Shown in pieces: positions 7,982-29,800 of a DNA stretch of 48,272 bases (position 1 is the stretch's first letter; every line of letters begins with the position of its first letter). Location of the stretch: positions 1-48,272 of IMG/VR virus record IMGVR_UViG_3300021082_000036. One strand, 5' to 3'. The notes below the pieces were generated by a model that was not told the origin of the DNA, did not search any database, and saw only the letters and a list, made by a program, of their open reading frames with translations. Position numbers and translations under genes: made by a program. This DNA comes from a virus (taxonomy: Duplodnaviria; Caudoviricetes).

Positions 7982-8410
7982 ATGGCTCGACAGCCGAAGA
8001 AGGAGGCGGTGAGGGAGATCGAAGGGATCCCCGGCACGGTCACGCACGGCTTCAAGGAGCAGCCGATCATCGAGCAGAAGATGCCCGAGAACGTGAGACG
8101 GGCCTTCGAGGAGAACCGGATAGACCCCTCCTCGCTCTCGATCTTCACGATGGGGCCATGCTCGATCTTCGTCGGCCTCGAACCCGCCGCGGTGGACGGC
8201 TCACACCTCTGGCACCTGACGATCTCCTGCCCCTCGCGCCACCCAACCTGGGACGAGATCAAGGTCGCTCGCTACCGCCTCGTCCCGCACCACGTCTGCA
8301 TGGCGATGCTGCTGCCACCGCCCGAGTTCTACGTCAACGTGCCCGAGCAAGACCACGTCTTCCAGCTGTGGGAAGTCACCGACCCCAGGCAGCCATGGAC
8401 AACTGGCTAG
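7982..8410 (+). CDS. conserved phage hypothetical protein (H.S.S...R.PTWDE...H...LWE type)
   Basis: Motif WHLTISCPSRHPTWDEIK...LLPPPEFYVNV...HVFQLWE; ACACGGAGG RBS. Confidence 0.7.
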   Translation: MARQPKKEAVREIEGIPGTVTHGFKEQPIIEQKMPENVRRAFEENRIDPSSLSIFTMGPCSIFVGLEPAAVDGSHLWHLTISCPSRHPTWDEIKVARYRLVPHHVCMAMLLPPPEFYVNVPEQDHVFQLWEVTDPRQPWTTG

Positions 8411-8496
8411 CCGACGGTGTCGATCCCGAAGCAGAAGATCAAGATCAAGGCCGCTGCGATCAGCGCCAACATCACGTCCTGAAAGGTGAGGTTCAC
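8407..8496 (-). CDS. 29-aa hydrophobic peptide
   Basis: GGAGG SD 9 nt before GTG; MNLTFQDVMLALIAAALILIFCFGIDTVG; exactly fills the gap between two plus-strand genes. Confidence 0.4.
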   Translation of the reverse strand: MNLTFQDVMLALIAAALILIFCFGIDTVG

Positions 8497-8497
8497 G

Positions 8498-8755
8498 ATG
8501 ACATCCCTCCATCTCGTAGGTGAAGATGACCTTACCCCGATGCCCGGCTGTCCACTCCTCTGTCGCCTCGGCCTGCACAAGTGGGAGGCCCTGAACGAAC
8601 ACGTCCAGCGGATAGAAGACGGCGTCTGGTTCGACCGCACCTGGAACCGCTGCAGCCGCGAAGGCTGCCCCAAGTCGGAGTGGTGGCGCTGCTACGACGT
8701 CGAGAAGTCACGCTGGCAGATGCCGTACGAGGACCCGGTCGAGCGGCACCTCTAG
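8498..8755 (+). CDS. hypothetical protein (LCRLGLHKW...C..C type)
   Basis: Cys/His motif typical of small phage proteins; GAGG SD. Confidence 0.55.
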   Translation: MTSLHLVGEDDLTPMPGCPLLCRLGLHKWEALNEHVQRIEDGVWFDRTWNRCSREGCPKSEWWRCYDVEKSRWQMPYEDPVERHL

Positions 8756-9094
8756 AGAGAGGACCCCGACCCTGTCGCGCCTTACCCCGTAGGGAGCTAC
8801 TCCCGATCCGCAGGCCCTCTCAGAGAGGACCCTACCGAACGGATGTGCGGCAGGGGGCAGGATCTGCAGATTCGTAGCTGGCGCTGGGGTGAGGCCCCCG
8901 AGCCAGGACCCGCGCACTCACCCGAGCGCGGGGGAAGCCCTCCCCCCGGCCCTAGCTAAGAGCTAGGGCTGGGCATGCGTGTGGGCAAGGCCTATCCCTT
9001 GGATAGTCCTTGCCTTACTGCCCCTCGTTCCTTGGCCCCTCACTGCGTAGCAGTGGCTGGGGAGGGTGGACAGTGGTGCTGCTGTCCTTGACCC

Positions 9095-9829
9095 TCAGCC
9101 CGTAGGGCTGAAGATGGAGCGCAGCTGCCGCCAGGTGGCCTGCTCCGCACCCTCTCTAGAGAGGGTCAGCGTGGCCTCCTCCTGCTGCAGTGGGTCGACG
9201 GAGTCGACGAGCGCCAGCACAGCGCGGGTCTGGCTCAAGCCTTCGGCTTGGAGAGCGCCAGCCACAGCCGCCTCAGCCAGATCCTCAGCCCGTAGGGCTA
9301 CCACTGCCTTCAGTGCCTTTCGGGGGGATAGACGAGGCTTTGCCTCTGTGTCGGGGTCCGAGGCAAGGGAGGCCAGCCCCTCGTCGGTCAGCGCCAGGTG
9401 CGAGTGGAAGACGCACACTTCCAGTCCCCGCATTCGGCCTACCCGGCAGCGCCGACCGTGGACCGTCATTGCCCTGCACCGCTTCTCCTCTGGGATCACA
9501 AGGCTTACAGCCTTGGTCCGGTGGACGTTCCCATCCTCGTCTTCGACGACCACAGGCTGCTTTGCAGCCTGCTTCCTGGCCCTGGCAGCGTTGCCGTTTC
9601 GGCGGTCCACCTCTCGCACCGGATCGGCGAGCAGTTCTACGCGCTGATCCCCCACCAAGAGGGACTGGGATACCACTTCGGACTGGGTAACCACTCCTTC
9701 GGAGTGACTGGGGTCGGTGAGTGGTGCAAGGGGTACAGCTTCGCTGAGGGATTCTGCAGCCCTTTCCGGGCGCGTCAGGGCTTCGCCCTGTGCGTCACTC
9801 ACGTAGCGGAAGCGTGGCGATCCCATCAC
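9095..9829 (-). CDS. putative terminase small subunit-like / Zn-finger protein (start uncertain)
   Basis: CRAMTVHGRRC...CVFH motif of the kind seen in actinophage TerS-like proteins; first gene of the minus-strand block leading to terL. Confidence 0.4.
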   Translation of the reverse strand: MMGSPRFRYVSDAQGEALTRPERAAESLSEAVPLAPLTDPSHSEGVVTQSEVVSQSLLVGDQRVELLADPVREVDRRNGNAARARKQAAKQPVVVEDEDGNVHRTKAVSLVIPEEKRCRAMTVHGRRCRVGRMRGLEVCVFHSHLALTDEGLASLASDPDTEAKPRLSPRKALKAVVALRAEDLAEAAVAGALQAEGLSQTRAVLALVDSVDPLQQEEATLTLSREGAEQATWRQLRSIFSPTG

Positions 9830-9893
9830 CTGATCCTACATGCTCGGAGCCGCCAACGCTACCCGCAAACCCGCATACCTGGGCCGTTTCACG

Positions 9894-10366
9894 GCCTCTA
9901 CGCGCCTTCGGATCTTCGATCCGGGCTGTTAGCATTCTGTTCGGATCACTGGACAGCTGCCCAATCCGTCAGCTAGGTTCGAAGCGGTTCGCCGATCCTG
10001 TCCCGGTTCGAACGGGGTAGCAGGGTAGGTGGCAAGCGGTTCCGCCGAGGGATGATCCCCGAAGGCCGATCCCGAGCCTCAATGTGACCCAGATGGACGA
10101 GGGAGACACGGACAGTTCCGCCTGGATCTCCCCTGCAGCGTCGGGAAGCCGAACAGATGCTGGGAAGGGGGATGTACCGAAGGTAAAGAGCCGCGTCGAG
10201 CCGGGAGGGAAAGCCTCCACGTCCACACAAACACACCCAACAGCATGCGACACCATTGGTGTTACCGCGCCGTTGGAGCTTCGGCTTTGGCTTTCTGCCG
10301 TCCGATGCTCCTCCGCCGCGGTGACGCCCACGGTGCCGAAGGCACTGGTGCATCACCACACGGAGG
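9894..10366 (+). ncRNA. structured non-coding element, copy A
   Basis: Collinear with 14151-14611, with 1-2 nt indels and compensatory stem changes; G-U pairs favour the + strand. Confidence 0.6.
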
Positions 10367-10373
10367 AGGCAGC

Positions 10374-10583
10374 ATGAAGAAAGCAGCGAAGCTCGGGACC
10401 CCCGTAGGGGGTCAGGAAGGCCGGATCCGGTGTGACCTTCGTGGTCACTTCAACGGCACACCCCGACCGAAGGTCGTCGGGGTCAGCGAGCAGGTTGCCT
10501 TGGCAACCCGCTACATGGAGCGGGACGCAGCGAAGGCCCTTCGGGCCTGGAAGCGGACTCTCCCGAAGGGAGTGAGGATCTAG
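10374..10583 (+). CDS. early hypothetical protein
   Basis: ACACGGAGG RBS at 10358. Confidence 0.65.
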   Translation: MKKAAKLGTPVGGQEGRIRCDLRGHFNGTPRPKVVGVSEQVALATRYMERDAAKALRAWKRTLPKGVRI

Positions 10584-10801
10584 TGGAAGCGGTCTACCTG
10601 ACCGTAGGTCAGATCGAGACGCTCTACCGCTTGTCGAAGACAAGCCAGATCGGGATGGAGCTTCGCTCCACAGTCTCCGATCAGTCGGTGGCTCACGTCG
10701 TCTCCGTCCTGAAGGACGGTTCGATGGGCTGGTCAGCCGTCCTCCCCGACGGCACAGGCCCGAACCTCTCTCCGAGAGGTCGACCGCTCTGGGAACGCTG
10801 A
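10583..10801 (+). CDS. early hypothetical protein
   Basis: Start overlaps the upstream stop; GAGG SD. Confidence 0.55.
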   Translation: MEAVYLTVGQIETLYRLSKTSQIGMELRSTVSDQSVAHVVSVLKDGSMGWSAVLPDGTGPNLSPRGRPLWER

Positions 10802-10881
10802 TCACGTAGTGATTCGGTGTGGCTCGTCACGGAGCCTCGCCGAATCCCTTCGGGAAGCGAAGGGCAACACGGAGGTACACG

Positions 10882-11310
10882 ATGGGCTGGAGCGATGCTC
10901 TGCAGGATGCAGAGCGTGAGATGTGGAACGAGATCGCCGTCAACGACGGCGGAGCAAGGGTGACCAGCACCTACGGTGCTGTCGAGACGAACGGCCTGGA
11001 CGATCACGTCAAGGCCCTTCGGGATGCCGTTCACAACGGCAGCGGCGAGATCGTAGATCTCGGAGACAAGCGGCTCGGACGCATCACCAGGCTTCGCCTG
11101 GTCACCGACCGGGACGTCCCATTCTGGGACTTCAGCTACTGCTACGGGACGCTGAAGGACGGCTCTGCCGTCCGGGTTCGGCTTCCCCTGTCGCAGTTCC
11201 CCAAGCAGGGCCTCAACCAGTCCCTGGTTGAGATGTGCCGCTCGGTCGGCGCGTTCGGCAAGGGTCTTGGGATCTTCGATCCCGAGGTCATCTCGAAGCT
11301 CTACGGATAG
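10882..11310 (+). CDS. early hypothetical protein
   Basis: ACACGGAGG RBS at 10867. Confidence 0.75.
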   Translation: MGWSDALQDAEREMWNEIAVNDGGARVTSTYGAVETNGLDDHVKALRDAVHNGSGEIVDLGDKRLGRITRLRLVTDRDVPFWDFSYCYGTLKDGSAVRVRLPLSQFPKQGLNQSLVEMCRSVGAFGKGLGIFDPEVISKLYG

Positions 11311-11370
11311 GGTCGATGGGGCCTCTAGAGGCCCTGTCGTTCCGTTCCGTTGGAACGGTGTACACGGAGG
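11305..11370 (+). repeat. two-hairpin leader module, copy 1
   Basis: GGATAGGGTCGATGG-hairpin-GTTCCGTTCC GTT GGAACGG-ACACGGAGG; also at 11804 and 12778. Confidence 0.8.
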
Positions 11371-11375
11371 TCAGC

Positions 11376-11798
11376 ATGAGCAACTACATGAGGCTGGACA
11401 CCGCAGAGCGGTGCCACTGTGGGGCGCACAAGCAGGGCAGTGACCACTGCCCTGAGTGTGGCTGCGAGGAGTTCGAGAGTCGCTGTGACCATGTCCACGT
11501 AGTGGACCCCACCTTCGTGGTGATTCACGGCAACCACACCTCGACGAAGTCGGTCGTCGACTACGTGGCCCACATCGTCTACGGATGCCCTCGCATCGAG
11601 GCTGTCCTGGTCGGGAGCCACTTCGTGGCTCTGGTCGAGTTCCCTGCCAGCCAGGCAACTCAAGCTCGAACTACGTTCGAGAGGATGGGCAGCTTCCCGC
11701 ACGGAGCCTGCATGGCGATGGACAAGGCTATCGCCTTGAGGGAGTTCGGCAGCTGGATCTACCACTACGCCCCCGGCACAGTCGTTGGAAACGACTGA
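11376..11798 (+). CDS. early hypothetical protein with N-terminal Zn ribbon
   Basis: CHCG...CPECGC motif; ACACGGAGG RBS. Confidence 0.7.
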   Translation: MSNYMRLDTAERCHCGAHKQGSDHCPECGCEEFESRCDHVHVVDPTFVVIHGNHTSTKSVVDYVAHIVYGCPRIEAVLVGSHFVALVEFPASQATQARTTFERMGSFPHGACMAMDKAIALREFGSWIYHYAPGTVVGND

Positions 11799-11803
11799 CC
11801 AGC

Positions 11804-11873
11804 GGACAGGGTCGGTGGGGCTTCGAGGAGCCTCGCCGTTCCATTCCGGTGGAATGGATGTACAACACGGAGG
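11804..11873 (+). repeat. two-hairpin leader module, copy 2
   Basis: GGACAGGGTCGGTGG...GCCGTTCCATTCC GGT GGAATGG...ACACGGAGG; compensatory G-C to A-T change in hairpin 2. Confidence 0.8.
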
Positions 11874-11881
11874 TGTCAAGC

Positions 11882-12655
11882 ATGGACATCATTCGCTTTC
11901 AGCGAATGGCTGAGGCTGGTGGCGTCGAGTACGACCTCGAAGAGGTCTACGGCGGCGAGATCCGTGGTCTACTGACCACGAACCAGAAGGTCGAGAAGGG
12001 TGAGAAGCAGGGATGGCTTACAGCCATCATGCACCTGGCCCCGGCGAAAGCCTCTGGCTTTCAGGTCTGCTCCTCGGCGACCAAGGGCTGCGAAGCAGCC
12101 TGCCTCAACACGGCGGGTCGTGGCGGGATCTTCACCAAGGGTGAAGTCGACAACGCCATCCAGAGGAAGCGCCGTCTTCGGACGGCGTGGTACTTCGCCA
12201 GGAGGAACGAGTTCCTCCTGCAGCTGGATGCCGAGATCGGCACCCACAAGCGGAGAGCAGCGCGGAAAGGCTTCCAGCCTGCCGTGCGGCTCAACGGGAC
12301 CAGCGACATCCGCTGGGAGTCGGTGAGGATCGATGGTCAGACGCTCTTCGAGCGTCACCCCGACGTCGTCTTCTACGACTACACCAAGCACAGCGACCGG
12401 GATGTCTCTGACATCCCGAACTACTCGCTGACGTTCTCGCTGGCCGAGAACAACGACAGCAAGGCTGTCGAGGCCCTCTCGAACGGGCTGAACGTGGCGG
12501 CGGTGTTCCACACCGTCCCCGAGACGTTCATGGGTCTTCCCGTCTTCGACGGGGATGCCTCGGACCTGAGGTTCCTCGACCCCTCTGGGGTCATCGTCGG
12601 CCTCAAGGCGAAGGGCAAGGCCCGGCAGGATCGCAGCAGCGGGTTCGTGAGGTGA
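11882..12655 (+). CDS. GP88-like protein (radical-SAM-related Cys motif)
   Basis: LAPA...C..AT.GC...CLN.AGRG, VRLNGTSDI.W, FYDYTK and Y.LTFS motifs. Confidence 0.75.
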   Translation: MDIIRFQRMAEAGGVEYDLEEVYGGEIRGLLTTNQKVEKGEKQGWLTAIMHLAPAKASGFQVCSSATKGCEAACLNTAGRGGIFTKGEVDNAIQRKRRLRTAWYFARRNEFLLQLDAEIGTHKRRAARKGFQPAVRLNGTSDIRWESVRIDGQTLFERHPDVVFYDYTKHSDRDVSDIPNYSLTFSLAENNDSKAVEALSNGLNVAAVFHTVPETFMGLPVFDGDASDLRFLDPSGVIVGLKAKGKARQDRSSGFVR

Positions 12656-12783
12656 GCGTCATCATCCAGATAGCGGTCATTCTGACCGTGATCTTCGCCA
12701 CTCCCCTCTTCGCTCCCTGGTGGCTGATTCTGCTCGTCTGGTGGATGGCCCTCTGGGCCATGCCGGACCTCAACGGCGGATAG
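12652..12783 (+). CDS. small Trp-rich membrane protein
   Basis: MSVIIQIAVILTVIFATPLFAPWWLILLVWWMALWAMPDLNGG; GTGA overlap with the upstream stop. Confidence 0.55.
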   Translation: MSVIIQIAVILTVIFATPLFAPWWLILLVWWMALWAMPDLNGG

Positions 12784-12842
12784 GGTCGGTGGCAGCCTCT
12801 GGCTGCTGCCGTTCCGTTCCGGTGGAACGGTTGACACGGAGG
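12778..12842 (+). repeat. two-hairpin leader module, copy 3
   Basis: GGATAGGGTCGGTGG...GCCGTTCCGTTCC GGT GGAACGG..ACACGGAGG. Confidence 0.8.
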
Positions 12843-12847
12843 TCGAC

Positions 12848-13306
12848 ATGCACTTCATGAACACCTGGGACATCGAGCGCTGCGTGGCGGTCTACGACCG
12901 ACACCCGATCCTCGGCCCAGCGTCGAAGACGCTGCTCAATCTGGAGCGGTGGACGAATCAGAACAGCGACGGTTGGGCCTATTGGCCCAAGCCCGTCCGG
13001 GCCGCGAAGAAGCTCATGGAGCTTCTGGAGCGGGACTACCGCTACGGCGAAGCCGAGGTGACCGAGGCGGAGTACAAGGCCGCTTTGCGGCCTATCAAGG
13101 CCTTCAGGACCCGACAGGGTGCTGACTTCGTCATCGAGGTGCCAGTCTCGGAGAGACTGGAGGAGCTTCGCAAGGTGATCCGCTCGGAGAGCATCTCCTG
13201 GGGAGAGCTTGCCGAGCTTCAGGGCCTCGCCCATCACATCTCCGATGGAGATGTCGAGCTTCTCGAATGGGCCGGGGTCGCCGAAGGCGAAAGACCGCTT
13301 GGCTGA
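12848..13306 (+). CDS. early hypothetical protein (actinophage-type N.NSDGW.YW.KP.RAA..L motif)
   Basis: Motif-like core; ACACGGAGG RBS. Confidence 0.75.
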   Translation: MHFMNTWDIERCVAVYDRHPILGPASKTLLNLERWTNQNSDGWAYWPKPVRAAKKLMELLERDYRYGEAEVTEAEYKAALRPIKAFRTRQGADFVIEVPVSERLEELRKVIRSESISWGELAELQGLAHHISDGDVELLEWAGVAEGERPLG

Positions 13307-13361
13307 GGTCACGGTGGGACCATTCGGTCCCGCCGCCTCTTCACCCAACACGGAGGGCAAC

Positions 13362-13685
13362 ATGCACGAAGGAGTGGTCGAAGACGGCACGATCTCGCGC
13401 TGTGGGATCTGCGGCTGTCAGGTTCACATGCTCGACCCGCTGGAGATGGACTGGATCTGCGATCCATGCTCCCTCGACGGCTGGTCGGGGTTCAAGTCGG
13501 CGTGGCGGCTTCGCCGCGGCGACATCATCCACCGTCGGGGCGAGAGCTTCACGGTGATGATGGAAGAGGCCTTCGGCCTCAAGGTTCTGCTCACCCTCCG
13601 GGGTGAGAAGGGTCAGGTCTTCGACCTGATGCTGAGGGCGACCGACAAGGTGTACATCCACCTTGACCGGGACGACTCGGTCTGA
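13362..13685 (+). CDS. early hypothetical protein with Zn ribbon
   Basis: CGICG...CDPC; ACACGGAGG RBS. Confidence 0.65.
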   Translation: MHEGVVEDGTISRCGICGCQVHMLDPLEMDWICDPCSLDGWSGFKSAWRLRRGDIIHRRGESFTVMMEEAFGLKVLLTLRGEKGQVFDLMLRATDKVYIHLDRDDSV

Positions 13686-13762
13686 CCTACGGTCAGTGAC
13701 GGTGGGGCCATGAGGCCCTGCCGTGTCTGCACCCGCAGGCAGTTCAACACGGAGGTACGCGC

Positions 13763-14149
13763 ATGAGCAAGGGCTTCGAGAGAGGCATGAGAGTCTTCAT
13801 CGAAGACTCTCGGGGTGGTCACTTCGGCATCGTCCAGGGGACCCTCCGGAGCGGACTGATCTCAGTCCGCTGGGACTCGGGAGCGTTCGAGCGCTGCACA
13901 CCCGAGGAACTGACGATCCAGTTCACCATCTCTGATGGTGAGGAGGAGCAGCTGACCCCGACGGGCCACGTCATCGGTGCCGAGTACTACTCGGCCTACT
14001 GGGGCGGTGCCTACAAGGTGATCGGTCCGAATGGACCGTACGGCGTCGAGGTCGAATGCACCGTCCCCGGTGGCGGAGCGCACCAGACCGAGGGTGAGCG
14101 CTGGACGCACATGACCACGCTCGACCCCAAGGATGTACGCATCGGCTAG
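13763..14149 (+). CDS. early hypothetical protein
   Basis: ACACGGAGG RBS at 13747. Confidence 0.7.
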   Translation: MSKGFERGMRVFIEDSRGGHFGIVQGTLRSGLISVRWDSGAFERCTPEELTIQFTISDGEEEQLTPTGHVIGAEYYSAYWGGAYKVIGPNGPYGVEVECTVPGGGAHQTEGERWTHMTTLDPKDVRIG

Positions 14150-14150
14150 A

Positions 14151-14611
14151 GCCTCACACGCACGTTCGGAGCGAAGCTCCGGGCTGTAAGGAGTTTGTTC
14201 GGATGACTGGACAGTAGCCCAACTCGACAGCTACTTCTAGAGGGCAGCGCCGAATCGTCCCGGTTCCGACGGGGTAGCGATGAGGTGGCAGCGGTTCCGG
14301 CCCTGGATGATCCCAGAAGCCTGATCCCGCAGCCTTGATGTCTGCCGCAGCGAGGGAGTCACGGTCAGCAGCGCCGACCTGCCTTCCCCCGAGCCATGGC
14401 ACAGATGCGATGCCGACAGCCGCCGTAGGGCGGAACGAAGCTGGAGGTGCTAGGCGGAGATCAGGGGAGGCAGCGAAGCAACGTCGTGACGAGCCGCCAG
14501 GGAGAGCCTGGGCGCTGCCACTACACACTCAAACATGCGACACCATCGGTGGGGTCCTTCGGGACCTCGCCCACGGTGCCGATACACGGTTCCGTTCACG
14601 ACACACGGAGG
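14151..14611 (+). ncRNA. structured non-coding element, copy B
   Basis: Fills the whole intergenic gap; homologous to 9894-10366. Confidence 0.6.
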
Positions 14612-14621
14612 TGTCACACGT

Positions 14622-15053
14622 ATGCCCAAGTTCAAGGTCGAGGTGAGCTTCAACCTCGGAACGACCATCGAGCCTGAGGTCAGCCGTCACCACTGGGACA
14701 CCAGCGGGACGAGCGAGTTCTCGGACGACAGCTACTTCCAGAGCGAGGAGGTCACCTCCTCGGGCGGTAGCCTCACGTTCGAGATCGAGGACGACGGCTT
14801 CGAGGACGAGGACGACGTCAAGTCATGGGTCGAGTCGAACGTCATTGCCGATGGCAATGAGGTGCAGGACGACAACGACCTGACCTGGATCGTCGAGGAC
14901 CTCGACATCGAGGTCGAGAAGCTGGAGATGAGCATCGAGGAGGCGGCAACGCTCCTTCGGAGCTTCCTCGACAGCCGCGAGCCTGCGTTCTTCGAGGCTC
15001 ACCCGACGGTGGCAGAGGCGCTCGACGTCCTGCTCAAGCATCACGACGCATAG
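14622..15053 (+). CDS. highly acidic hypothetical protein
   Basis: Asp/Glu-rich sequence; ACACGGAGG RBS. Confidence 0.75.
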   Translation: MPKFKVEVSFNLGTTIEPEVSRHHWDTSGTSEFSDDSYFQSEEVTSSGGSLTFEIEDDGFEDEDDVKSWVESNVIADGNEVQDDNDLTWIVEDLDIEVEKLEMSIEEAATLLRSFLDSREPAFFEAHPTVAEALDVLLKHHDA

Positions 15054-15140
15054 CCGTCCGACAGCGGGTGGGGGAGCTTGCTCCCCTCGCCCGGTGCGGT
15101 ACGTCTGGCACCATCACGACGACACGGAGGTGTCACGCAT

Positions 15141-15563
15141 ATGAGTCTCAACTGGTCGCTCGCCGACATCGAGAACTGGGACGAGGTCTGCCACATCGTG
15201 GCGACCGTGGACTGGCCGATGGACGGCACGAAGAAGGGTGACAAGCTGCTCAACCCGGTCACGACCGCGCTGATCTGGCACAGCCTGAACACGGGCATCG
15301 GTCGGATCAAGGCGGAGAACGCGGCTGAGGTCTTCGCCCGGATCTCCCTGGTCGAGGAGCTTTACGGCTCCTCGCTGCGGAGCGGTGACGGCAAGGATCG
15401 TCGGATCACGATGGACGACGTCGCCGCCCACGTTGGTCTGTCGACCAACGCATCGTTCAAGGACGAGTCCCGCGCCAGCTTCATGAAGCGCCACGTCACG
15501 TCCAAGCTCGACGGCAAGGCGAAGGCGTACGAGCGGTACGCCAAGCAGGAGGTCCCGGCCTGA
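15141..15563 (+). CDS. hypothetical protein
   Basis: ACACGGAGG RBS at 15122; typical codon usage. Confidence 0.75.
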   Translation: MSLNWSLADIENWDEVCHIVATVDWPMDGTKKGDKLLNPVTTALIWHSLNTGIGRIKAENAAEVFARISLVEELYGSSLRSGDGKDRRITMDDVAAHVGLSTNASFKDESRASFMKRHVTSKLDGKAKAYERYAKQEVPA

Positions 15564-15772
15564 TGCCGCGGGACTACACCGACGCCGTTCGCCGGGTCGA
15601 CGCCGACATCCTGTCGGCTCGCTCGACGGACGAGATCGTCGCCCGGATCCCGGCCAAGCACCTGTACGACGCGCTGTGCGTGTTCCTGCTCGACGAGGAG
15701 CTTCGCCCGGTGCTGGAGATCCTCTCTCCGAAGGCTGTCGAGCAAGCTCGACACGCTCTGCTGCTCACGTAG
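15563..15772 (+). CDS. hypothetical protein
   Basis: TGATG overlap; AGGAGG SD. Confidence 0.6.
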   Translation: MPRDYTDAVRRVDADILSARSTDEIVARIPAKHLYDALCVFLLDEELRPVLEILSPKAVEQARHALLLT

Positions 15773-15783
15773 CGTCCGGCAGT

Positions 15784-15823
15784 GGGTGTGGACAGTAGCA
15801 CTTGTGCTACACTGTCCATGCCC
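15784..15823. promoter_or_regulatory. nested inverted repeat (candidate operator/promoter) upstream of the HTH gene
   Basis: GGGTGTGGACAGTAGCAC TT GTGCTACACTGTCCATGCCC; contains a TG-TACACT -10-like hexamer. Confidence 0.5.
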
Positions 15824-15858
15824 AGTGCGGATGTCCGCGCTGTAACCGAGAGGAAAGG

Positions 15859-16074
15859 ATGGCAGCACGACCGATCAGCAAGACCCGGTTCGCGGAGGCG
15901 GTCCAAGACCGCCTGCTCGACACGCATCAGGTGATGGAGATGCTCGGCGTACGTAGCCGGACGACCATCGCCAACATGGTCGCAGCTGGGACTCTCCCGG
16001 CTCCGATTCTCAAGGTGGAGAGGGTGTACTCCCTCTGGGATCGCCTCGCCATCGAATCGCACACACGGAGGTAA
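15859..16074 (+). CDS. AlpA/excisionase-like HTH DNA-binding protein
   Basis: LLDTHQVMEMLGVRSRTTIANMVAAGTLPAP...W pattern. Confidence 0.75.
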   Translation: MAARPISKTRFAEAVQDRLLDTHQVMEMLGVRSRTTIANMVAAGTLPAPILKVERVYSLWDRLAIESHTRR

Positions 16075-16079
16075 CACAG

Positions 16080-17180
16080 GTGACTCGCACAGTCGAGAAC
16101 CTCGACGCGCTGATGTCGAGGATCGTGGCGGAAGACCGCCGCAAGTACGACGTGATCGCCGACACCCGCAGCATGAACGTGGGCGTCCGCGTGAACGAGG
16201 ACGGCAAGGGTGGTGTGGTCGAACTCGACCTCGACACCGAGGGCAGCGAGCTTCGCTCGTTCCGCCTGACCGACCACATGCAGGGCCAGATCTCGACCGA
16301 TCTGGGCATCCCGAAGAAGTACTTCGACCGGATGCGTCAGGACGCCCCGTCTCTGTTCGAGACGAACGTCCGCCACTGGATGAACAACGAGCCGAAGGCT
16401 CGCATGATCCGTGGCCTCACCAACGACGGCGGTCAGATGATGACGGGCCGGGCGTGGATGAGCGACAAGTTCCGCCGCCTCGACAACATCGAGGTCGCAC
16501 GGATGCTCCTCCCCGAGTTCGACAAGCTCGGCACCGAGGTGCAGTTCCACCAGGCCGCGGTCACGGAGCAGAAGCTCCACATCCGCGCCCTGTTCCCCGC
16601 TCTTGAGCGGGACATCAAGGCGGTCGGTGACACCGTCCGCTGGGGCATCGCCATCGAGAACTCCGAGATCGGCGCTGGCTCGCTGAAGCTCTCGGGCTTC
16701 GTGATGGTGCTGATCTGCACCAACGGCATGGTCACGAACAAGGTGCTGAACGTGCGCCACGTCGGCAAGCGTGAGGGCGAGGGCGTCCTCTCGAACGAGG
16801 CCCTCCGGGCCGACGACAAGGCCTTCTGGCTCGCGGCTCGGGACGAGCTTCGCGCCCTCTGCACCGAGGCCGCGTTCGAGACGGTCGTCGCCCAGCTGAA
16901 GGGCCTCTCGGACACCGAGGTCATCAGCCCGGTGGCTGCGACGAAGGTGCTGGCTCGGGAGTTCGCGCTCACCGAGGCCGAGGAGGAGGCAGTCATGCTC
17001 TCCCTCGTCAAGGACCCCAACGGGGTCGGTCGTGGTCAGTGGGGCGCGATCAACGCCTTCACGGCAGCGGCCAAGACGGCGGAGGGGTTCGACCGCCAGG
17101 CCGAGATCGAGGCCATCGGTTGGGGCCTCGCTCAGATGCCCGAGAAGACGTGGGAGAAGGTCGCCCTGGCGGTCAAGTAG
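16080..17180 (+). CDS. DUF932-like protein
   Basis: RA.MSDKFRRLDN, I.NSEIG.GSL, L.CTNGM and WGAINAFT motifs. Confidence 0.7.
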   Translation: MTRTVENLDALMSRIVAEDRRKYDVIADTRSMNVGVRVNEDGKGGVVELDLDTEGSELRSFRLTDHMQGQISTDLGIPKKYFDRMRQDAPSLFETNVRHWMNNEPKARMIRGLTNDGGQMMTGRAWMSDKFRRLDNIEVARMLLPEFDKLGTEVQFHQAAVTEQKLHIRALFPALERDIKAVGDTVRWGIAIENSEIGAGSLKLSGFVMVLICTNGMVTNKVLNVRHVGKREGEGVLSNEALRADDKAFWLAARDELRALCTEAAFETVVAQLKGLSDTEVISPVAATKVLAREFALTEAEEEAVMLSLVKDPNGVGRGQWGAINAFTAAAKTAEGFDRQAEIEAIGWGLAQMPEKTWEKVALAVK

Positions 17181-17336: not shown

Positions 17337-17417
17337 CGGGTCGAGGCTCTCTCAGGGGGAGCCTCGGTCCGGTGCTGCTGGTTCTGCACCACGCACGAAG
17401 ACACGGAGGTGTCACCT

Positions 17418-21166: not shown

Positions 21167-21782
21167 CCTCAGCTTCGAGAAGCTGGCGGAGGTGTGCGGC
21201 GTGGACATCACAGCGCTCACCCCGACGGCGAGGGGAGCGCTGAACCGAGCGCTCTCGGACATCCGCTCTGCGACCGAGGAACTGGACGACGGCGAGCTTG
21301 CTCTCGTCATCGAGTCGAAGGCGGCGACCTACCGCAAGGTGATGGACGGTGCGCTGCTTACGCCCACCGCCCTCGCCAAGCACTGGCCGAGCCTTGAGGG
21401 GATGGCGGCGGCAGCAGCAGCGCCGACGACCTACGTCACCCACGACCTTGCCTACTGCACGACCTGCGAGGGGATGCGGTTCGTCTTCGCCTTCTACCGA
21501 CAGCCGAAGCTGTCGCAGTGGATGATCGACGTGGCGAAGCTGCCGAAGGCACGACCGCCAGCCGAGTGGCTGACCGACCCCTCGAAGTACGTCGAGGAGC
21601 GGCACGGCCATGAGGTCTACAGCCCCTGCCCCGACTGCAACCAGGCCGGGCTGCAGATCGTGAACGAGTACCTCGCACGGTTCAACCGACTTCACTCGGG
21701 AGGGCCTCGCCTTCCCGCACCCGAGCAGGCCACACGCTTGTTCGGTAACATGGACACAACCAACACGGAGGGAGCAGCATGA
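21150..21782 (+). CDS. putative replication-initiation-related protein
   Basis: LTPTALAKHWPSL motif resembles the C-termini of actinophage replication proteins; CTTC...CPDC; next to the SSB-like gene. Confidence 0.4.
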   Translation: MPRERDLSFEKLAEVCGVDITALTPTARGALNRALSDIRSATEELDDGELALVIESKAATYRKVMDGALLTPTALAKHWPSLEGMAAAAAAPTTYVTHDLAYCTTCEGMRFVFAFYRQPKLSQWMIDVAKLPKARPPAEWLTDPSKYVEERHGHEVYSPCPDCNQAGLQIVNEYLARFNRLHSGGPRLPAPEQATRLFGNMDTTNTEGAA

Positions 21783-25074: not shown

Positions 25075-25787
25075 GCCTCGCCCCCGCCGTCCACCCGGAC
25101 ATCCGCGGCGTCGAGGGGAAGGCGCGTCCGGTCGAGGCGACCTGCGCTGCGCCGGGCTGCATCAGCCTCAGCCAGCAGGGCCACCACCTCTGGAGCCGTG
25201 CCTACCTGAGGGGTCAGCCCTACGACTGGGTCAGGCTGCCCTCGGGCCGGGTGATCTCGAACGTGATCGGGCTGTGCATGCGCCATCACAACATGGTCAC
25301 CGGAGGCGTCGGCGGACACCAGGCGATGATCCGGCTGGAGCCTGACGAGACGTTCATCTGGCTGACCCCGGACACGGGCGACATCAACCAGCCCGTCTGG
25401 GTCCATGAGGGCCTGCTCCACCCCCAGCCCTGGTCGGAGACGCCCATCGACACCGAGCCTGCCCGAGCTACGCGCTCGGCAGCCCACGCCCATCCCGACC
25501 TGGCTCCAGGGGAGACGTGCCCGTCTTGCCACTACACGCGCCCTCTGCCGCGTCCTGCGGGGCCGAAGCGGAAGACCAAGACCTACTCGATGCTCGTCCC
25601 CGATGACGCTGAGATCGGCGCTGACGTCCTTGACGAGTGGGTTTCTCAGCTGGCTGCGACCCTCGGCTTCGGCGACGACGTCAGCCAGAGGCTCGTCCGC
25701 TACCACACCATCGTCGCGGCTCTCGCCTGGACGATGCAGCACAGGCAGCAGTTCATCGAAGACATCGCGGAGGTGGCAGCGTCATGA
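25071..25787 (+). CDS. HNH-like / Zn-binding protein
   Basis: CAAPGC...HHLW...NVIGLCMRHH motif. Confidence 0.55.
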   Translation: MSLAPAVHPDIRGVEGKARPVEATCAAPGCISLSQQGHHLWSRAYLRGQPYDWVRLPSGRVISNVIGLCMRHHNMVTGGVGGHQAMIRLEPDETFIWLTPDTGDINQPVWVHEGLLHPQPWSETPIDTEPARATRSAAHAHPDLAPGETCPSCHYTRPLPRPAGPKRKTKTYSMLVPDDAEIGADVLDEWVSQLAATLGFGDDVSQRLVRYHTIVAALAWTMQHRQQFIEDIAEVAAS

Positions 25788-25990
25788 CCGAGGCACAGCG
25801 CAAGGTCTACGACTGGGTGATCGCCTTCATCAACGAGCATGGCTACGCACCGACGGTGCGGCAGATCGGTGCGGCTCTCGGGTACTCGTCCTCGGCGACG
25901 ACCCAGCAGCACCTCAAGGCTCTGGTCGCCAGCGGCTACCTGGAGGGGGAAGGTAGGACCCTGCGACCGGGGAAGGACGCCTCTAGTTGA
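25784..25990 (+). CDS. LexA-type winged-HTH DNA-binding domain protein
   Basis: TEAQRKVYDW...GYAPTVRQIGAALGYSSSATTQQHLKAL..GYL; no peptidase domain. Confidence 0.85.
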   Translation: MTEAQRKVYDWVIAFINEHGYAPTVRQIGAALGYSSSATTQQHLKALVASGYLEGEGRTLRPGKDASS

Positions 25991-25994
25991 GGGG

Positions 25995-26867
25995 CTAGAG
26001 CGTCCGGTCGAGGTGGAGGTGCGGGGCGGCGTGGTTCGCAGAGATGCGTGACAGCGTCTGCCCCGCCCTCACCCTCGTACCAGCAGGCAGCGAGTAGCGC
26101 CCGTCGATGTGGCCGAGCCACCATGTGTGGCCCTCGTCGTCGCGGAAGTACATCGACTGCCCACCCTGCGCCGACCCGAGCCTGACGACTACGCCGTCAC
26201 GGGGAGCGGGGACGGCGGTGCCCGGCTTCGCCATGATGTCGACCGCCGTCTTCGCCCCGTGGTTGAGGTCGAGGCCGTCGGTGACGTGGGTGCCGTGGCC
26301 CGTCCAGGCGTTGACGTTGACCGACCCCTTCGGCAGCGCCACGTTCCCTCCTCCGCCGCCGGGGAACCCGGAGAAGTCGAGCGCTGGCATCTTGCGGTAG
26401 GCGTTCGGCCCGATCCCCCATGCTCCGAAGTCCTTGCCACCCTTGCTCATTGCATAGGCCACCCTTGCATTCGTCTCCGGGTTGAGCAGGTCCTTGTACG
26501 AGGACAGCCCGTACTGCTTCAGCCGCGCAGGCCCGAGCTTGCCGAGCATGTTGATCTGGAAGAGGCCGTAGCTGTCGTCGCCCGTCGAGCGGTCGGGGTT
26601 GTAGGCATCAGCCCTGCCTCCGCTCTCCCGCTTGGCGATGGCCCAGGCCGTCTTCAGCGCCTGCCCCTTGAAGCCAGCCTGCTGCAGGGTGTGGACGAGC
26701 GGGTCGCCGACCCCGCCCGGTACGGAGGTGGAGCCGAAGCTCGGCGGTGGCGTCAGCCCGAGGTCGAAGTCCGGTGGGTCGGAAAGATCAAGGAAAGATC
26801 TTTCCGTCTTCTTTCCCTGGTCGAGCAGCAGGTCGGCTGCGCTCAGGGTGGGGAGCTTGAAGGCCAT
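25995..26867 (-). CDS. virion-associated peptidoglycan hydrolase (SLT transglycosylase plus M23 peptidase)
   Basis: AIAKRESGG...SYGLFQIN (SLT); AVDI...G..V.AP.DG.V, LGH and PHLH (M23). Confidence 0.85.
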   Translation of the reverse strand: MAFKLPTLSAADLLLDQGKKTERSFLDLSDPPDFDLGLTPPPSFGSTSVPGGVGDPLVHTLQQAGFKGQALKTAWAIAKRESGGRADAYNPDRSTGDDSYGLFQINMLGKLGPARLKQYGLSSYKDLLNPETNARVAYAMSKGGKDFGAWGIGPNAYRKMPALDFSGFPGGGGGNVALPKGSVNVNAWTGHGTHVTDGLDLNHGAKTAVDIMAKPGTAVPAPRDGVVVRLGSAQGGQSMYFRDDEGHTWWLGHIDGRYSLPAGTRVRAGQTLSRISANHAAPHLHLDRTL

Positions 26868-29800
26868 CAGCCTGGAGCGTAGGGGTCAGCGCTCGGCGAG
26901 TTGTCCACCGGAGCGTAGGGATCCTCGCCTCCCGCCGGGCCAGAGTCAGGCGCGTAGGGATCGTCGTCGCCTCCGCCGCCACCTCCGCCTGTCGACTTCG
27001 GCTTCTTCGCCCCGTAGCTAGAGAAGCCGATCCCGAAGGTGCCGAAGAAGAGCGCCACGGCTGCAGCTGTGGCTGCGTCGACCGGATCCTTCGGCTCGCG
27101 CCAGACGTCGAGAACGTCACGCAGCATCATCGGCGCGGTCGAGTTGATCGCCTCGCCCTTGAGCGTGACAGGCTCACCGATGAAGGTCTGCCCCCGCAGG
27201 ACATCGAGGCCGATGCCCGTCGTCGGCGCAGCCTTCGACTCCAAGAAGCGGTAGACGATGTCGAGCCGGGACGAGTTGCCGAAGCCACCCTTCAGGTCCT
27301 GCGTCTTGCCTGTCGTCGAGGAGGTCGAGCGCCCGACCGTCAGCCGGGTGAAGAAGACGAGCAGTGGGCCGAACCCCGCCATGATGTCGATCCGGGTGTC
27401 GCCGATCCGGATCTTGCCGAAGTTCGCCGACGTCGGATCCATGCCCACCGTCACGCCCGGCATCTGCGCGGCGACCGCGAGGACCATCCCCGTCGCGAGG
27501 GCGGTGGACATCAGGTTCTTCGTCGCCTCAGCGAAGAGGAACGGGTCGCTCTGGTAGAGCTTGATGTAGTAGGCGGGGCTGATCATGTTGATCCGCGAGG
27601 CGAGTAGCCGCGGCGAGAAGAGGAACGTGTTCAGCAGCGGGGCCGACGTCTCGACCCTGAGCAGATGCGTCTCGGGCAGGACTCCACGACCAGTCATCTG
27701 GTTGACCATCCGGCCAAGGCCCTCGACGAACTCGTCGCTCTCGACGTTGACGCCCTTCGCCCTCGCTGCCTCCATCGTGAGGTCGAAGACGTCCGCTCGC
27801 AGCCTGTGCAGGAACGCCTCGTAGGCACGGCCCGACCACTTCACGGGCGGGATGAACTGCTCCGCGTAGGAGGAGTAGAACTGCTCCTCGCGCATGGCGA
27901 GGTCGGGGCTTGAGGCCGACGTCTCGATGGCGAGCTTGCCGCGCCCGTAGTGGACGAAGTTCTCCCGGTTGGCGATCTCCTCGGCGATGTCGGCTGCCCT
28001 CTCCTCGGAGGAGAGCGCCTTGAACATCGGCTTGAAGGCCTTCGCGAACAGGATCGGGTGCCGGGTGCCTGCGATCAGGCCCTGGCGCAGCGGGGCGGAG
28101 AGGTCGAACGAGGCGGCGATGGAGCGAGGGATGTTCCAGACCTCGACGATCACCTTCTCGATCCCCTTCAGGGTCTGCTTGCGGAAGCCAGCGTCCTTGC
28201 CGAAGACCCTGTTCAGGAGCAGAAGCTCGCTGTCGGTCGGCACCGCTCCCTCGGTGGCTCGGATCACCGCCTCCGCCGCCCGGACCTTCTCGAAGGGGCG
28301 GACCTTGGTCGAGAACCTGATCGACTTGATCAGCGAGGCGACGGCCTCCGGGGTCAGGTCGTCGAGGCCCGTGTACTCCTCCTTGGGAAGCTCGCCCTTC
28401 AGGGCCGAGAGCGCCGAGTGGAACTCGTCCACCCCTTCCTCCCCCGTCCACTCGTCGAACATCTGAGCGATCCGCTTCCCCCGCTCCGCCGAGTAGCCAG
28501 CCTTCTGGGCCTTGCGGATCTTCGGCGCTGTCTTCAGCAGCCGCACCAGCTGCTCGGCGGGAGTCTCGTTCTTGACGAGCATCCGGTCGAAGACCTGCTT
28601 CACCTCGGGGTGGACGTGAGCGCCGATGTTGTTGACGTGCAGGTAGACCTGCCCCATCCAGGCCTTGATCTTGGCGAAGACGCCGTCGAGTTCGGAGGTC
28701 GCCGCCATCCCGTCGTAGACGTAGCGCTCCAGCGCCCTGGCGTAGGCCTCATGGTCGGCGGTCGTGGCGAAGTTGCCGAAGTGGCGGTTGAGGATCGCCC
28801 GGTCGACGTCGTTCAGGTCGGGGAGGACGACGTGGGAAAGCTCATGGATCACGGTCGAGACGTCCGCCCCCTCGAAGAGGTGGATCGCGCTCGTCCCGTC
28901 GGCGAAGAACTCGGACGCCCCCTTCGGGATCGCCTCCCAGGCTCGCTGCTGGTAGTAGGCCATCGGCGCTGCCACCTTCGCCTTGGCGGCGTCGGTCATC
29001 TCGATCACGTAGCCGTCCATCGCATGGACAGCTGGTCCCACCGGGCCAGCGTTCGGGTCGGGCACGATCACATGGACGTAGTGGGCAGGCTTGACGACCA
29101 TCCGCCGCCCGATCTCGACGCCGATCTCGCCGTTCGCGTACGCGGCCTGCACGATCCCCGGCCCCTCGACCGTCATCACCCTGTCGCCGCGCTTCGGCTC
29201 GGGGAAGGTCGGATCCTCCATGTACCTGACCCCGTCGATGACGAAGTCGTCCTGCGGTGGCTGGCGGCTGAAGGCCCGGCCCTCGTCGGCGTAGCCGCCG
29301 TGGAAGATCCCCTGCTTGACCGCCCCCGTCTCGCCCATCTCCTTCTCGAAGATCTTCTGCACCTTGCCAGCCTCGTTGCCCTGGCCGTAGAGATCCATGA
29401 ACCCCTTCACCATCCCCTCGCGGTGAGCGGGGTCGTTGGCGTAGGCCTGGATCTCGGCCTGGCTCATCCCGGCGGCGTCGTCCCGCAGCTTGGCGACGTC
29501 GTTCTGCCAGTTCGGGTTGTCGTGGATCTGGATCGCCCGGCCCTTCGGGGTCACCCGGTAGGCCTGGTTGCGGATCGCCTGGACATCCCCCTGGACGATG
29601 ATGATCCGCTCGACCCCCGACTCCTGCGCGAAGCGGAGGGTGCGCTTGACGAGCGCCTCCATCTGCTTGGAGCCGAGCGGCGGAGGGCCGGGGACGTTGT
29701 CGCTCAGGTCCCTGAGGTCGTTCAGCTGGTCGCGGTTGGTGCGGTAGAGGTCTTCGAGGTCGGCGATCTCGGCGGCGTAGCGGCTCGGATCCTGCTCCAT

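Follow-up and report, generated by a model that had tools for sequence, protein, structure and literature searches.

Two predicted leader elements in the early region

We analysed a phage record of 48 kb and 65% GC (IMG/VR IMGVR_UViG_3300021082_000036), the whole of which, 48,272 nucleotides (nt), is referred to here as the window. Genes for an SU10-type capsid, portal, adaptor and terminase, all on the minus strand, mark a tailed phage of podovirus type. Short genes are packed on the plus strand between 10.4 and 26 kb, many of them headed by the ribosome-binding site (RBS) sequence ACACGGAGG (16 sites), and we call this block early from its gene layout. A preliminary description of this DNA had reported two diverged, collinear copies of a 470-nt element in this block. 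The duplication was confirmed by self-BLAST, which aligned positions 9900–10115 (copy A) with 14158–14368 (copy B) at 74.5% identity over 220 nt (E 1.4e-27). Each copy appears to hold an uncatalogued, structured leader RNA whose core is ultraconserved, with a predicted promoter ahead of it and a predicted processing stem behind.

Nine copies of the element were found in six contigs. Three longer genomes (the window phage, L052 and L053) each have one A and one B copy, and pattern and protein scans place both copies of L052 and L053 at the same positions as in the window phage. Three further single copies, on the short contigs L078 and L079 (type A) and L069 (type B), came from a metagenome scan whose 13 stretches comprised two from the window's own record, four from known relatives, these three, and four chance or partial matches. 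Because the leader of L079 matches that of L053 when aligned, it was left out, giving the eight distinct copies to which the comparisons below refer unless another number is stated. In a fourth relative, L054, the match at both sites is limited to the initial ~100 nt of the element. Identity between A and B ranges from 0.45 to 0.82 depending on the domain.

The sequence blocks that the copies had been said to share are present and most are near-invariant in the eight copies; one of them, ACAGATGC, is confined to the two window copies and occurs in none of the relatives. The idea of a single 470-nt element held in part, in that a structured RNA lies inside it, but the stretch divides into promoter DNA, an RNA core and a 3' stem. 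Since promoter DNA likely takes up the first ~90 nt and the 3' stem is one of an ordinary intergenic family, the unusual RNA measures ~240–275 nt rather than 470. Compensatory changes over the eight copies and the lack of an Rfam match support reading it as a novel structured RNA or leader of phage. The preliminary description had recognised no known RNA family, and Rfam 15 gave no match in the window at the gathering threshold; at E ≤ 10 the matches were weak and unrelated or off-target, and a scan for tRNA and tmRNA found none. We found no description of the motif in the literature, although the supplements of one survey of structured RNAs in viruses (PMC10690425), covered here in part, could list it.

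A predicted promoter module precedes the RNA

The first ~90 nt of each copy are likely a DNA module containing a sigma70-type promoter. Over ten copies its consensus runs from an inverted repeat through phased GTTCGGA repeats to TGGACA/TTGACA-N16-19-GCTANNNN, the −10 side reading GCTA-NNNN 16–19 nt past the −35. The B copy of L069 is an exception with no recognisable −35, and L054 has the module at both sites without the RNA core, with a canonical TTGACA each time. In copy A, the inverted repeat (9909–9923; 6-bp arms, 3-nt spacer) stands ~70 base pairs (bp) upstream of the predicted start. GTTCGGA-like repeats, likely a regulator binding array, extend over 9904–9945 (plus strand) with 22- and 11-bp spacing. 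Predicted promoter A (9950–9979, plus strand) joins a −35 hexamer, TGGACA (9950–9955), across 18 nt to a −10 hexamer, TAGGTT (9974–9979), that follows an invariant CAGC, and from this pattern the +1 would lie near 9986 (plus strand). The copy B module (14164–14237, plus strand) has its inverted repeat at 14167–14181, GTTCGGA repeats, TGGACA at 14208–14213 and the −10 region GCTACTTC at 14230–14237, with a predicted +1 near 14244. The promoter-like pattern occurs just twice in the window, at A and B, and in none of 100 shuffles. In soil contigs aligned to copy B, differences begin just past the −35 hexamer, and none falls within it among the matches listed (40 of 73).

Two pairings that had been proposed for this module fared differently. 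The CGGAKC/GMTCCG inverted repeat forms a perfect 6–7-bp stem in 10/10 copies; its spacer flips between copies (TTC/GAA, TTT/AAA), so the repeat is strand-symmetric and likely acts as DNA. The proposed G-U hairpin, YTGTTCGG/CTGGACAG, did not hold up: it is uncompensated, with only 5–6 of its 8 pairs left in three of ten copies. Its 5' arm is constant (TGTTCGG) and its 3' arm turns into TTGACA, TTGACG or CCACAT. Because the pairing is uncompensated, this feature is better read as a DNA repeat beside the −35 hexamer, the last of the series, which pairs with that hexamer by chance.

The strand symmetry of the upstream inverted repeat, along with several hairpins bearing C-GAA-G or C-GTA-G triloops, which are stable in DNA, would suit a further earlier proposal, that the element is a promoter or primer site folded from single-stranded DNA (ssDNA), as in Frpo/ssi. 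We regard this as very improbable. The genome, with its portal and terminase, is that of a tailed phage, and tailed phages inject double-stranded DNA. Within the RNA fold described below, G-U cells outnumber A-C cells 52 to 11 among 609, a count biased to the plus strand since the structure was drawn there. Frpo is defined by an ssDNA stem that rebuilds a double-stranded −35 and −10 (PMC9849209); in ssDNA folds of the copies, no conserved duplex holds these hexamers, whose pairing probability is 0.27–0.82 and alike on both strands, which leaves the Frpo/ssi reading unsupported.

Two likenesses of the module are leads. Its GCTA-type −10 resembles the GCTANAWC-type consensus of Caulobacter RpoD promoters, as given in the available part of PMC8144410, and its 11-bp repeat resembles the direct-repeat LexA box in the corresponding part of PMC3323433. 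The product of the final gene in the plus-strand block (25784–25990, plus strand), a gene that L058 and L062 share, is a LexA DNA-binding domain standing alone, of 68 amino acids (aa; Pfam E 2e-16), and is a candidate to bind the GTTCGGA repeats of the promoters. TGTTCGG recurs at 21739–21750, and in L062 near 15160; TAACAT or TACAAT comes after it, a short way ahead of an RBS, and these are possible middle promoters.

A conserved RNA core follows the predicted start

Comparison of the copies predicts that the module is followed by a structured plus-strand RNA of 240–275 nt with three domains, D1–D3. Its first helix, P1, starts 7 nt past the −10 hexamer in both copies, at the expected +1. In copy A, D1 and D2 occupy 9986–10089 (plus strand), where P1 closes a junction holding a long hairpin with a 7-nt loop and the D2 arm (10031–10078, plus strand; apical loop AUGAUC). 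D3 (10094–10225, plus strand) is drawn as a three-way junction; its parts are a tandem G-A helix, which is predicted, an extension that varies between copies and a hairpin of 5 bp with a GRRAG pentaloop. An unpaired, A/C-rich linker follows (10226–10244, plus strand), with 4% G over 10222–10244. In copy B, D1–D3 occupy 14244–14518 (plus strand). The D3 extension is absent from the B copy of L052 and is thus dispensable, and L054 has neither D2 nor D3, with short hairpin leaders in their place.

Pairing in this hand-curated structure was kept in 98.0% of pair cells in D1–D2, 96.9% in D3 and 100% in the 3' stem, D4. Both sides of a pair change at 10/31 pairs in D1–D2 and 15/35 in D3 (together 25/66), and at 2/12 in D4. 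Several D1 and D3 pairs change inside the A or the B group, and the hairpin noted earlier as GGAGG/CCTCC in one copy and CCAGG/CCTGG in the other covaries at 5/5 pairs. Controls with a slid register reached at most 52% paired for D1–D2 and D3 and at most 58% with D4 included, figures that overstate certainty because the structure was derived from these same sequences, which are related. Single-sequence folding was weak (z −2.68 for A, −0.93 for B), and folding energies of the whole leader separate neither the strands nor RNA from DNA.

Conservation is greatest in the D2 arm, whose 50 nt are 100% identical in the four distinct A copies, 95% in the four B copies and 82% between A and B; for comparison, four-fold sites of the neighbouring GP88-like gene are 65–82% identical. 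Conservation at this level points to a binding surface more than to a simple stem. An address loop paired to an antisense RNA was considered and rejected, since neither loop is phage-specific: that of D2 does not vary, and that of D1 is shared between phages.

Coding offers a poor account of this conservation. Indels had been taken to speak against an open reading frame (ORF), and a comparison of frames among the copies found a reading frame conserved in none. A leader peptide or N-terminal extension could in principle be read from an invariant AUG past the A/C-rich linker, and this AUG is fused in frame to the first gene in 4/9 copies. A stop follows after 25–26 codons in another 4/9, however, and one more is out of frame; the AUG lacks an RBS, and every third position is conserved too, as RNA structure predicts. 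We give this explanation very little credence.

The 3' stem belongs to an intergenic family

D4 is a member of a family of 10–11-bp stems found before most early genes. In copy A (10245–10338, plus strand) it has a GGUG/CGCC upper stem, a 3x3 internal loop and a lower stem, the A type being a 12-bp helix that runs on into a longer irregular stem. In copy B, D4 and the RBS occupy 14535–14611 (plus strand), with a 10-bp upper stem and a UUCG loop; the stem is thus long in A and short in B, as had been described. Related stems, 13–30 nt ahead of the RBS of other early genes, start at 10816, 11315, 11814, 12788, 13313, 13701 and 15067 (span 10816–15091, plus strand), and the window holds eight such stems 13–31 nt upstream of an RBS from 10816 to 15067. 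Of 59 RBS sites from five loci, 22 have as their best perfect stem one that carries GGUG 9–11 bp from the loop; the same U-G pair is found in 21 of these, and all four B-type D4 stems and the L054 A leader are included. In several stems the lower 3' strand can refold to a small hairpin ahead of the RBS. Genome-wide, the stem pattern was counted 30 times, where shuffles gave 13 on average and 25 at most, and was rated not enriched; because the pattern imposes its first four pairs, we relied only on where it occurs and on the unbiased 22/59.

The fixed length and internal loop of these stems fit RNase III substrates, for which the accessible text of PMC1540722 gives an 11-bp minimum helix and a single cut where an internal loop is present. 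Here a helix of ~11 bp runs from loop to internal loop, between genes. D4 is likely an RNase III-type site, and we infer cleavage there from the design of the stem. Stem-plus-RBS cassettes lie at 10816–15091 and 17340–17400; the genes between them are ordered differently in different relatives, and contigs are joined at these places, which suggests that the cassettes are shuffled.

The strands of D4 could serve a different end, a translational switch in which D1–D3 would sense a ligand or protein and D4 would either form, leaving the RBS free, or give up its strands to pair the RBS, with polarity silencing the operon. Copy A could use CUCCUCC, in the 3' arm of D4 and complementary to the RBS, and copy B the GACACC strand of D4 for this alternative pairing. 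Duplexes between the RBS and upstream sequence average −15.8 kcal at the eight element sites and −10.5 kcal (standard deviation 1.9) at 53 other RBS sites, the two alternative folds lie 0–6 kcal apart, and the D2 loop GAUG can pair with CAUY of D4 in 8/8 copies. We nevertheless consider a switch unlikely. Against shuffles the A sites stand out (0–5.5%) but the B sites do not (12–18.5%), and the eight sites represent two lineages only. D4 is also a generic member of the stem family, GGUGUC after the B RBS is found at other early genes as well, and the loop–loop pairing rests on near-invariant columns.

A cut at D4 could instead free D1–D3, with or without D4, as a small RNA acting in trans within the first minute of infection, for instance as a decoy for a host protein that serves defence or binds RNA, a self-assembling RNA or a ribozyme. 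The RNA is compact, has several domains and includes an ultraconserved arm, translation would not be needed, and a palindrome, GAUC, in the invariant D2 loop could let it dimerise. The single cut at an internal loop described in the part of PMC1540722 at hand would leave a protective 3' hairpin, and loss of the core in L054 suits an accessory function. A copy at each promoter in 3/3 longer genomes fits a cis role better, however; the RNA has no terminator of its own, and the GOLLD, ROOL, OLE and ribozyme families of Rfam are unmatched. We view a released RNA as rather unlikely. Improbable, in our estimation, is a 5' stabilising or folding scaffold without a specific partner: the shorter L054 leaders are likewise hairpins, but the bases of D2 and D3 that are unpaired or mismatched show more identity than stability requires, and a D4 cut would part the RNA from its message.

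Neighbouring genes and distribution

The first gene of block A, gp1, follows the RBS ACACGGAGG from 10358 and encodes a basic protein of 69 aa with no family (10374–10583, plus strand); a low-confidence single-sequence model (pLDDT 68) has one helix, residues 37–62, with the remainder unstructured. Homologues of gp1 (P0124–P0140) have two N-terminal types, the arginine-rich type occurring in L054, which is without D2–D3, a coincidence known from a single lineage. Block B begins with a strongly acidic protein of 143 aa, also without a family (14622–15053, plus strand), a possible nucleic-acid mimic. The ESM Atlas had no usable match for either first gene. In B-type contigs the element is kept and a different sequence follows the RBS, at loose contig ends; because these contigs diverge there, the element is probably independent of any single gene product.

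Divergent from promoter A lies a conserved ORF of 244 aa (9095–9829, minus strand) with no library match and a Cys/His motif, which we take to be of the kind known from small terminases. The non-coding stretch at 8750–9090 contains palindromes, such as CTAGCT-N-AGCTAG, and is conserved in L053 and L054; it is possibly a genome end or packaging region. A probable virion protein of 1664 aa (26867–31861, minus strand) has a partial match to a PHROG of unknown function only.

The known range of the element is narrow, a few related phages. No close cultured relative was found (terminase identity below 29%), and the element was not matched in the more distant relatives L060 and L061. Neither 17 terminase loci nor a terS-alignment search yielded new early regions. 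Among annotated phages, seven records matched, each over the 32-nt RBS end only; plasmids gave a single 25-nt match, by chance; and in GTDB genome contigs the D2 pattern had no match and no terminase relative appeared among 66 stretches. Pattern scans returned mostly chance hits, with no further likeness in 22/26, 22/24 and 4/13 stretches.

Discussion

Having weighed these alternatives, we tentatively favour an antitermination leader, short of an even chance though it is, in which each copy would act like put or nut on the host RNA polymerase that is transcribing it. A host sigma70-type early promoter would drive the transcript, and D1–D3, the first RNA made if the +1 is placed correctly, would load onto the elongating polymerase as an antiterminator. 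Binding might require RNA alone, as for put, or proceed through the basic 69-aa gp1 and the boxB-like pentaloop hairpin, as for lambda N and nut. RNase III would then cut the leader from the message at D4, just ahead of the first RBS, and the effect would be readthrough of 4-kb and ~12-kb blocks of short genes. A cis role on the nascent transcript is indicated because a copy has been kept at both predicted promoters through long divergence, and a trans-acting RNA would need one copy. Modification of the polymerase is the function that survives best, since the leader could no longer stabilise the message after a D4 cut and the downstream genes are all provided with an RBS of their own.

The element probably works like put or nut and, by size and fold, is a member of neither. 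In phage HK022, each of the two early promoters is followed by a put RNA; the two RNAs are similar and need no tether for activity (PMC9378689). The arrangement here is alike, with two diverged structured RNA copies in cis, one after each predicted early promoter, and so are the irregular stems with bulges and non-canonical pairs. As described there, put is ~70 nt with two stem-loops, whereas the present core has 240–275 nt and two multi-way junctions and lies in a phage of podovirus type; no relation to put in sequence was found, and no Rfam match.

In lambda, the N leader contains an RNase III site. The present element has a boxB-like feature, a 5-bp covarying stem with a GRRAG loop in 8/8 copies, whose pentaloop differs from the lambda boxB loop consensus; no boxA was recognised by eye. 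The order of its parts, in which a promoter and a structured RNA that includes a pentaloop hairpin of 5 bp are followed by a stem of processing type and the RBS of a small basic first gene, resembles that of the lambda pL leader (PMC5725501, PMC8632103), where nutL lies ~200 nt upstream of N with structured RNA between them (PMC5725501). Unlike lambda nut and N, the element has a much larger conserved core, and gp1 is without a family match. The stems resemble T7-type RNase III stems, so far as the available text of PMC1540722 describes them, in a 10–11-bp upper stem with an internal loop, repeated just upstream of early RBSs, and differ in a GC-rich GGUG/YGCC signature that is off the Escherichia coli box preferences. 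The Bacillus EAR RNA is likewise a larger structured RNA proposed, in the consulted part of PMC8632103, to antiterminate in cis; EAR is chromosomal, however, and the element has no Rfam match. GOLLD, ROOL and OLE are also multi-domain RNAs of unknown function in phage DNA, but are longer stand-alone genes, whereas this RNA continues into mRNA and matches none of them in Rfam.

Two further assignments were rejected on the features examined. A group II intron or permuted derivative would have an intact domain 5 hairpin with its catalytic triad, a domain 6 and a D1 core; here GAGCCG does precede the pentaloop hairpin, but the strand that follows it covaries with helix P3, and no Rfam group II model matched at E ≤ 10. 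A T-box riboswitch would show a UGGN bulge, unpaired, in its antiterminator/antisequestrator; the T-box-like run in copy A contains no UGG and no unpaired base, copy B does not have the run, and there was again no Rfam match.

Several observations weigh against an antitermination leader as set out above. A strict sigma70 scan called neither promoter, and TAGGTT matches only 3/6 positions. The shuffle control cannot be read as a probability, since the eight sequences are related, and because both D2 changes fall on the single A/B split, D2 pairing rests largely on invariant columns. L054 keeps the same promoters, operons and stems yet has no D2 or D3, so that at least one lineage can do without the core. 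This core is three to four times the size of put and is folded differently. A consensus scan found no U-tract terminator in the early genes that would need overriding, with four weak sites in 8400–16200 against 3.1 expected, and attempts to assign a host gave no result.

RNAs that reprogram polymerase without a dedicated protein are rare, the examples in the available part of PMC8632103 being put, EAR and RARE. It is possible, if doubtful, that the element represents a new class, of large RNAs that alone antiterminate or otherwise modify polymerase, beyond the enterobacterial lambdoid phages, clipped by RNase III and riding on the polymerase, or else a first translation-free anti-defence effector. 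Should antitermination fail as an explanation, the element would still be an uncatalogued RNA motif with an ultraconserved core. It also provides a handy system, an RNA of ~250 nt with two natural paralogues, a natural minimal form in L052B and a natural null in L054. If the antitermination reading is true, a high-GC podovirus would have a larger, independently evolved RNA of the polymerase-reprogramming class, and that class would be widened.

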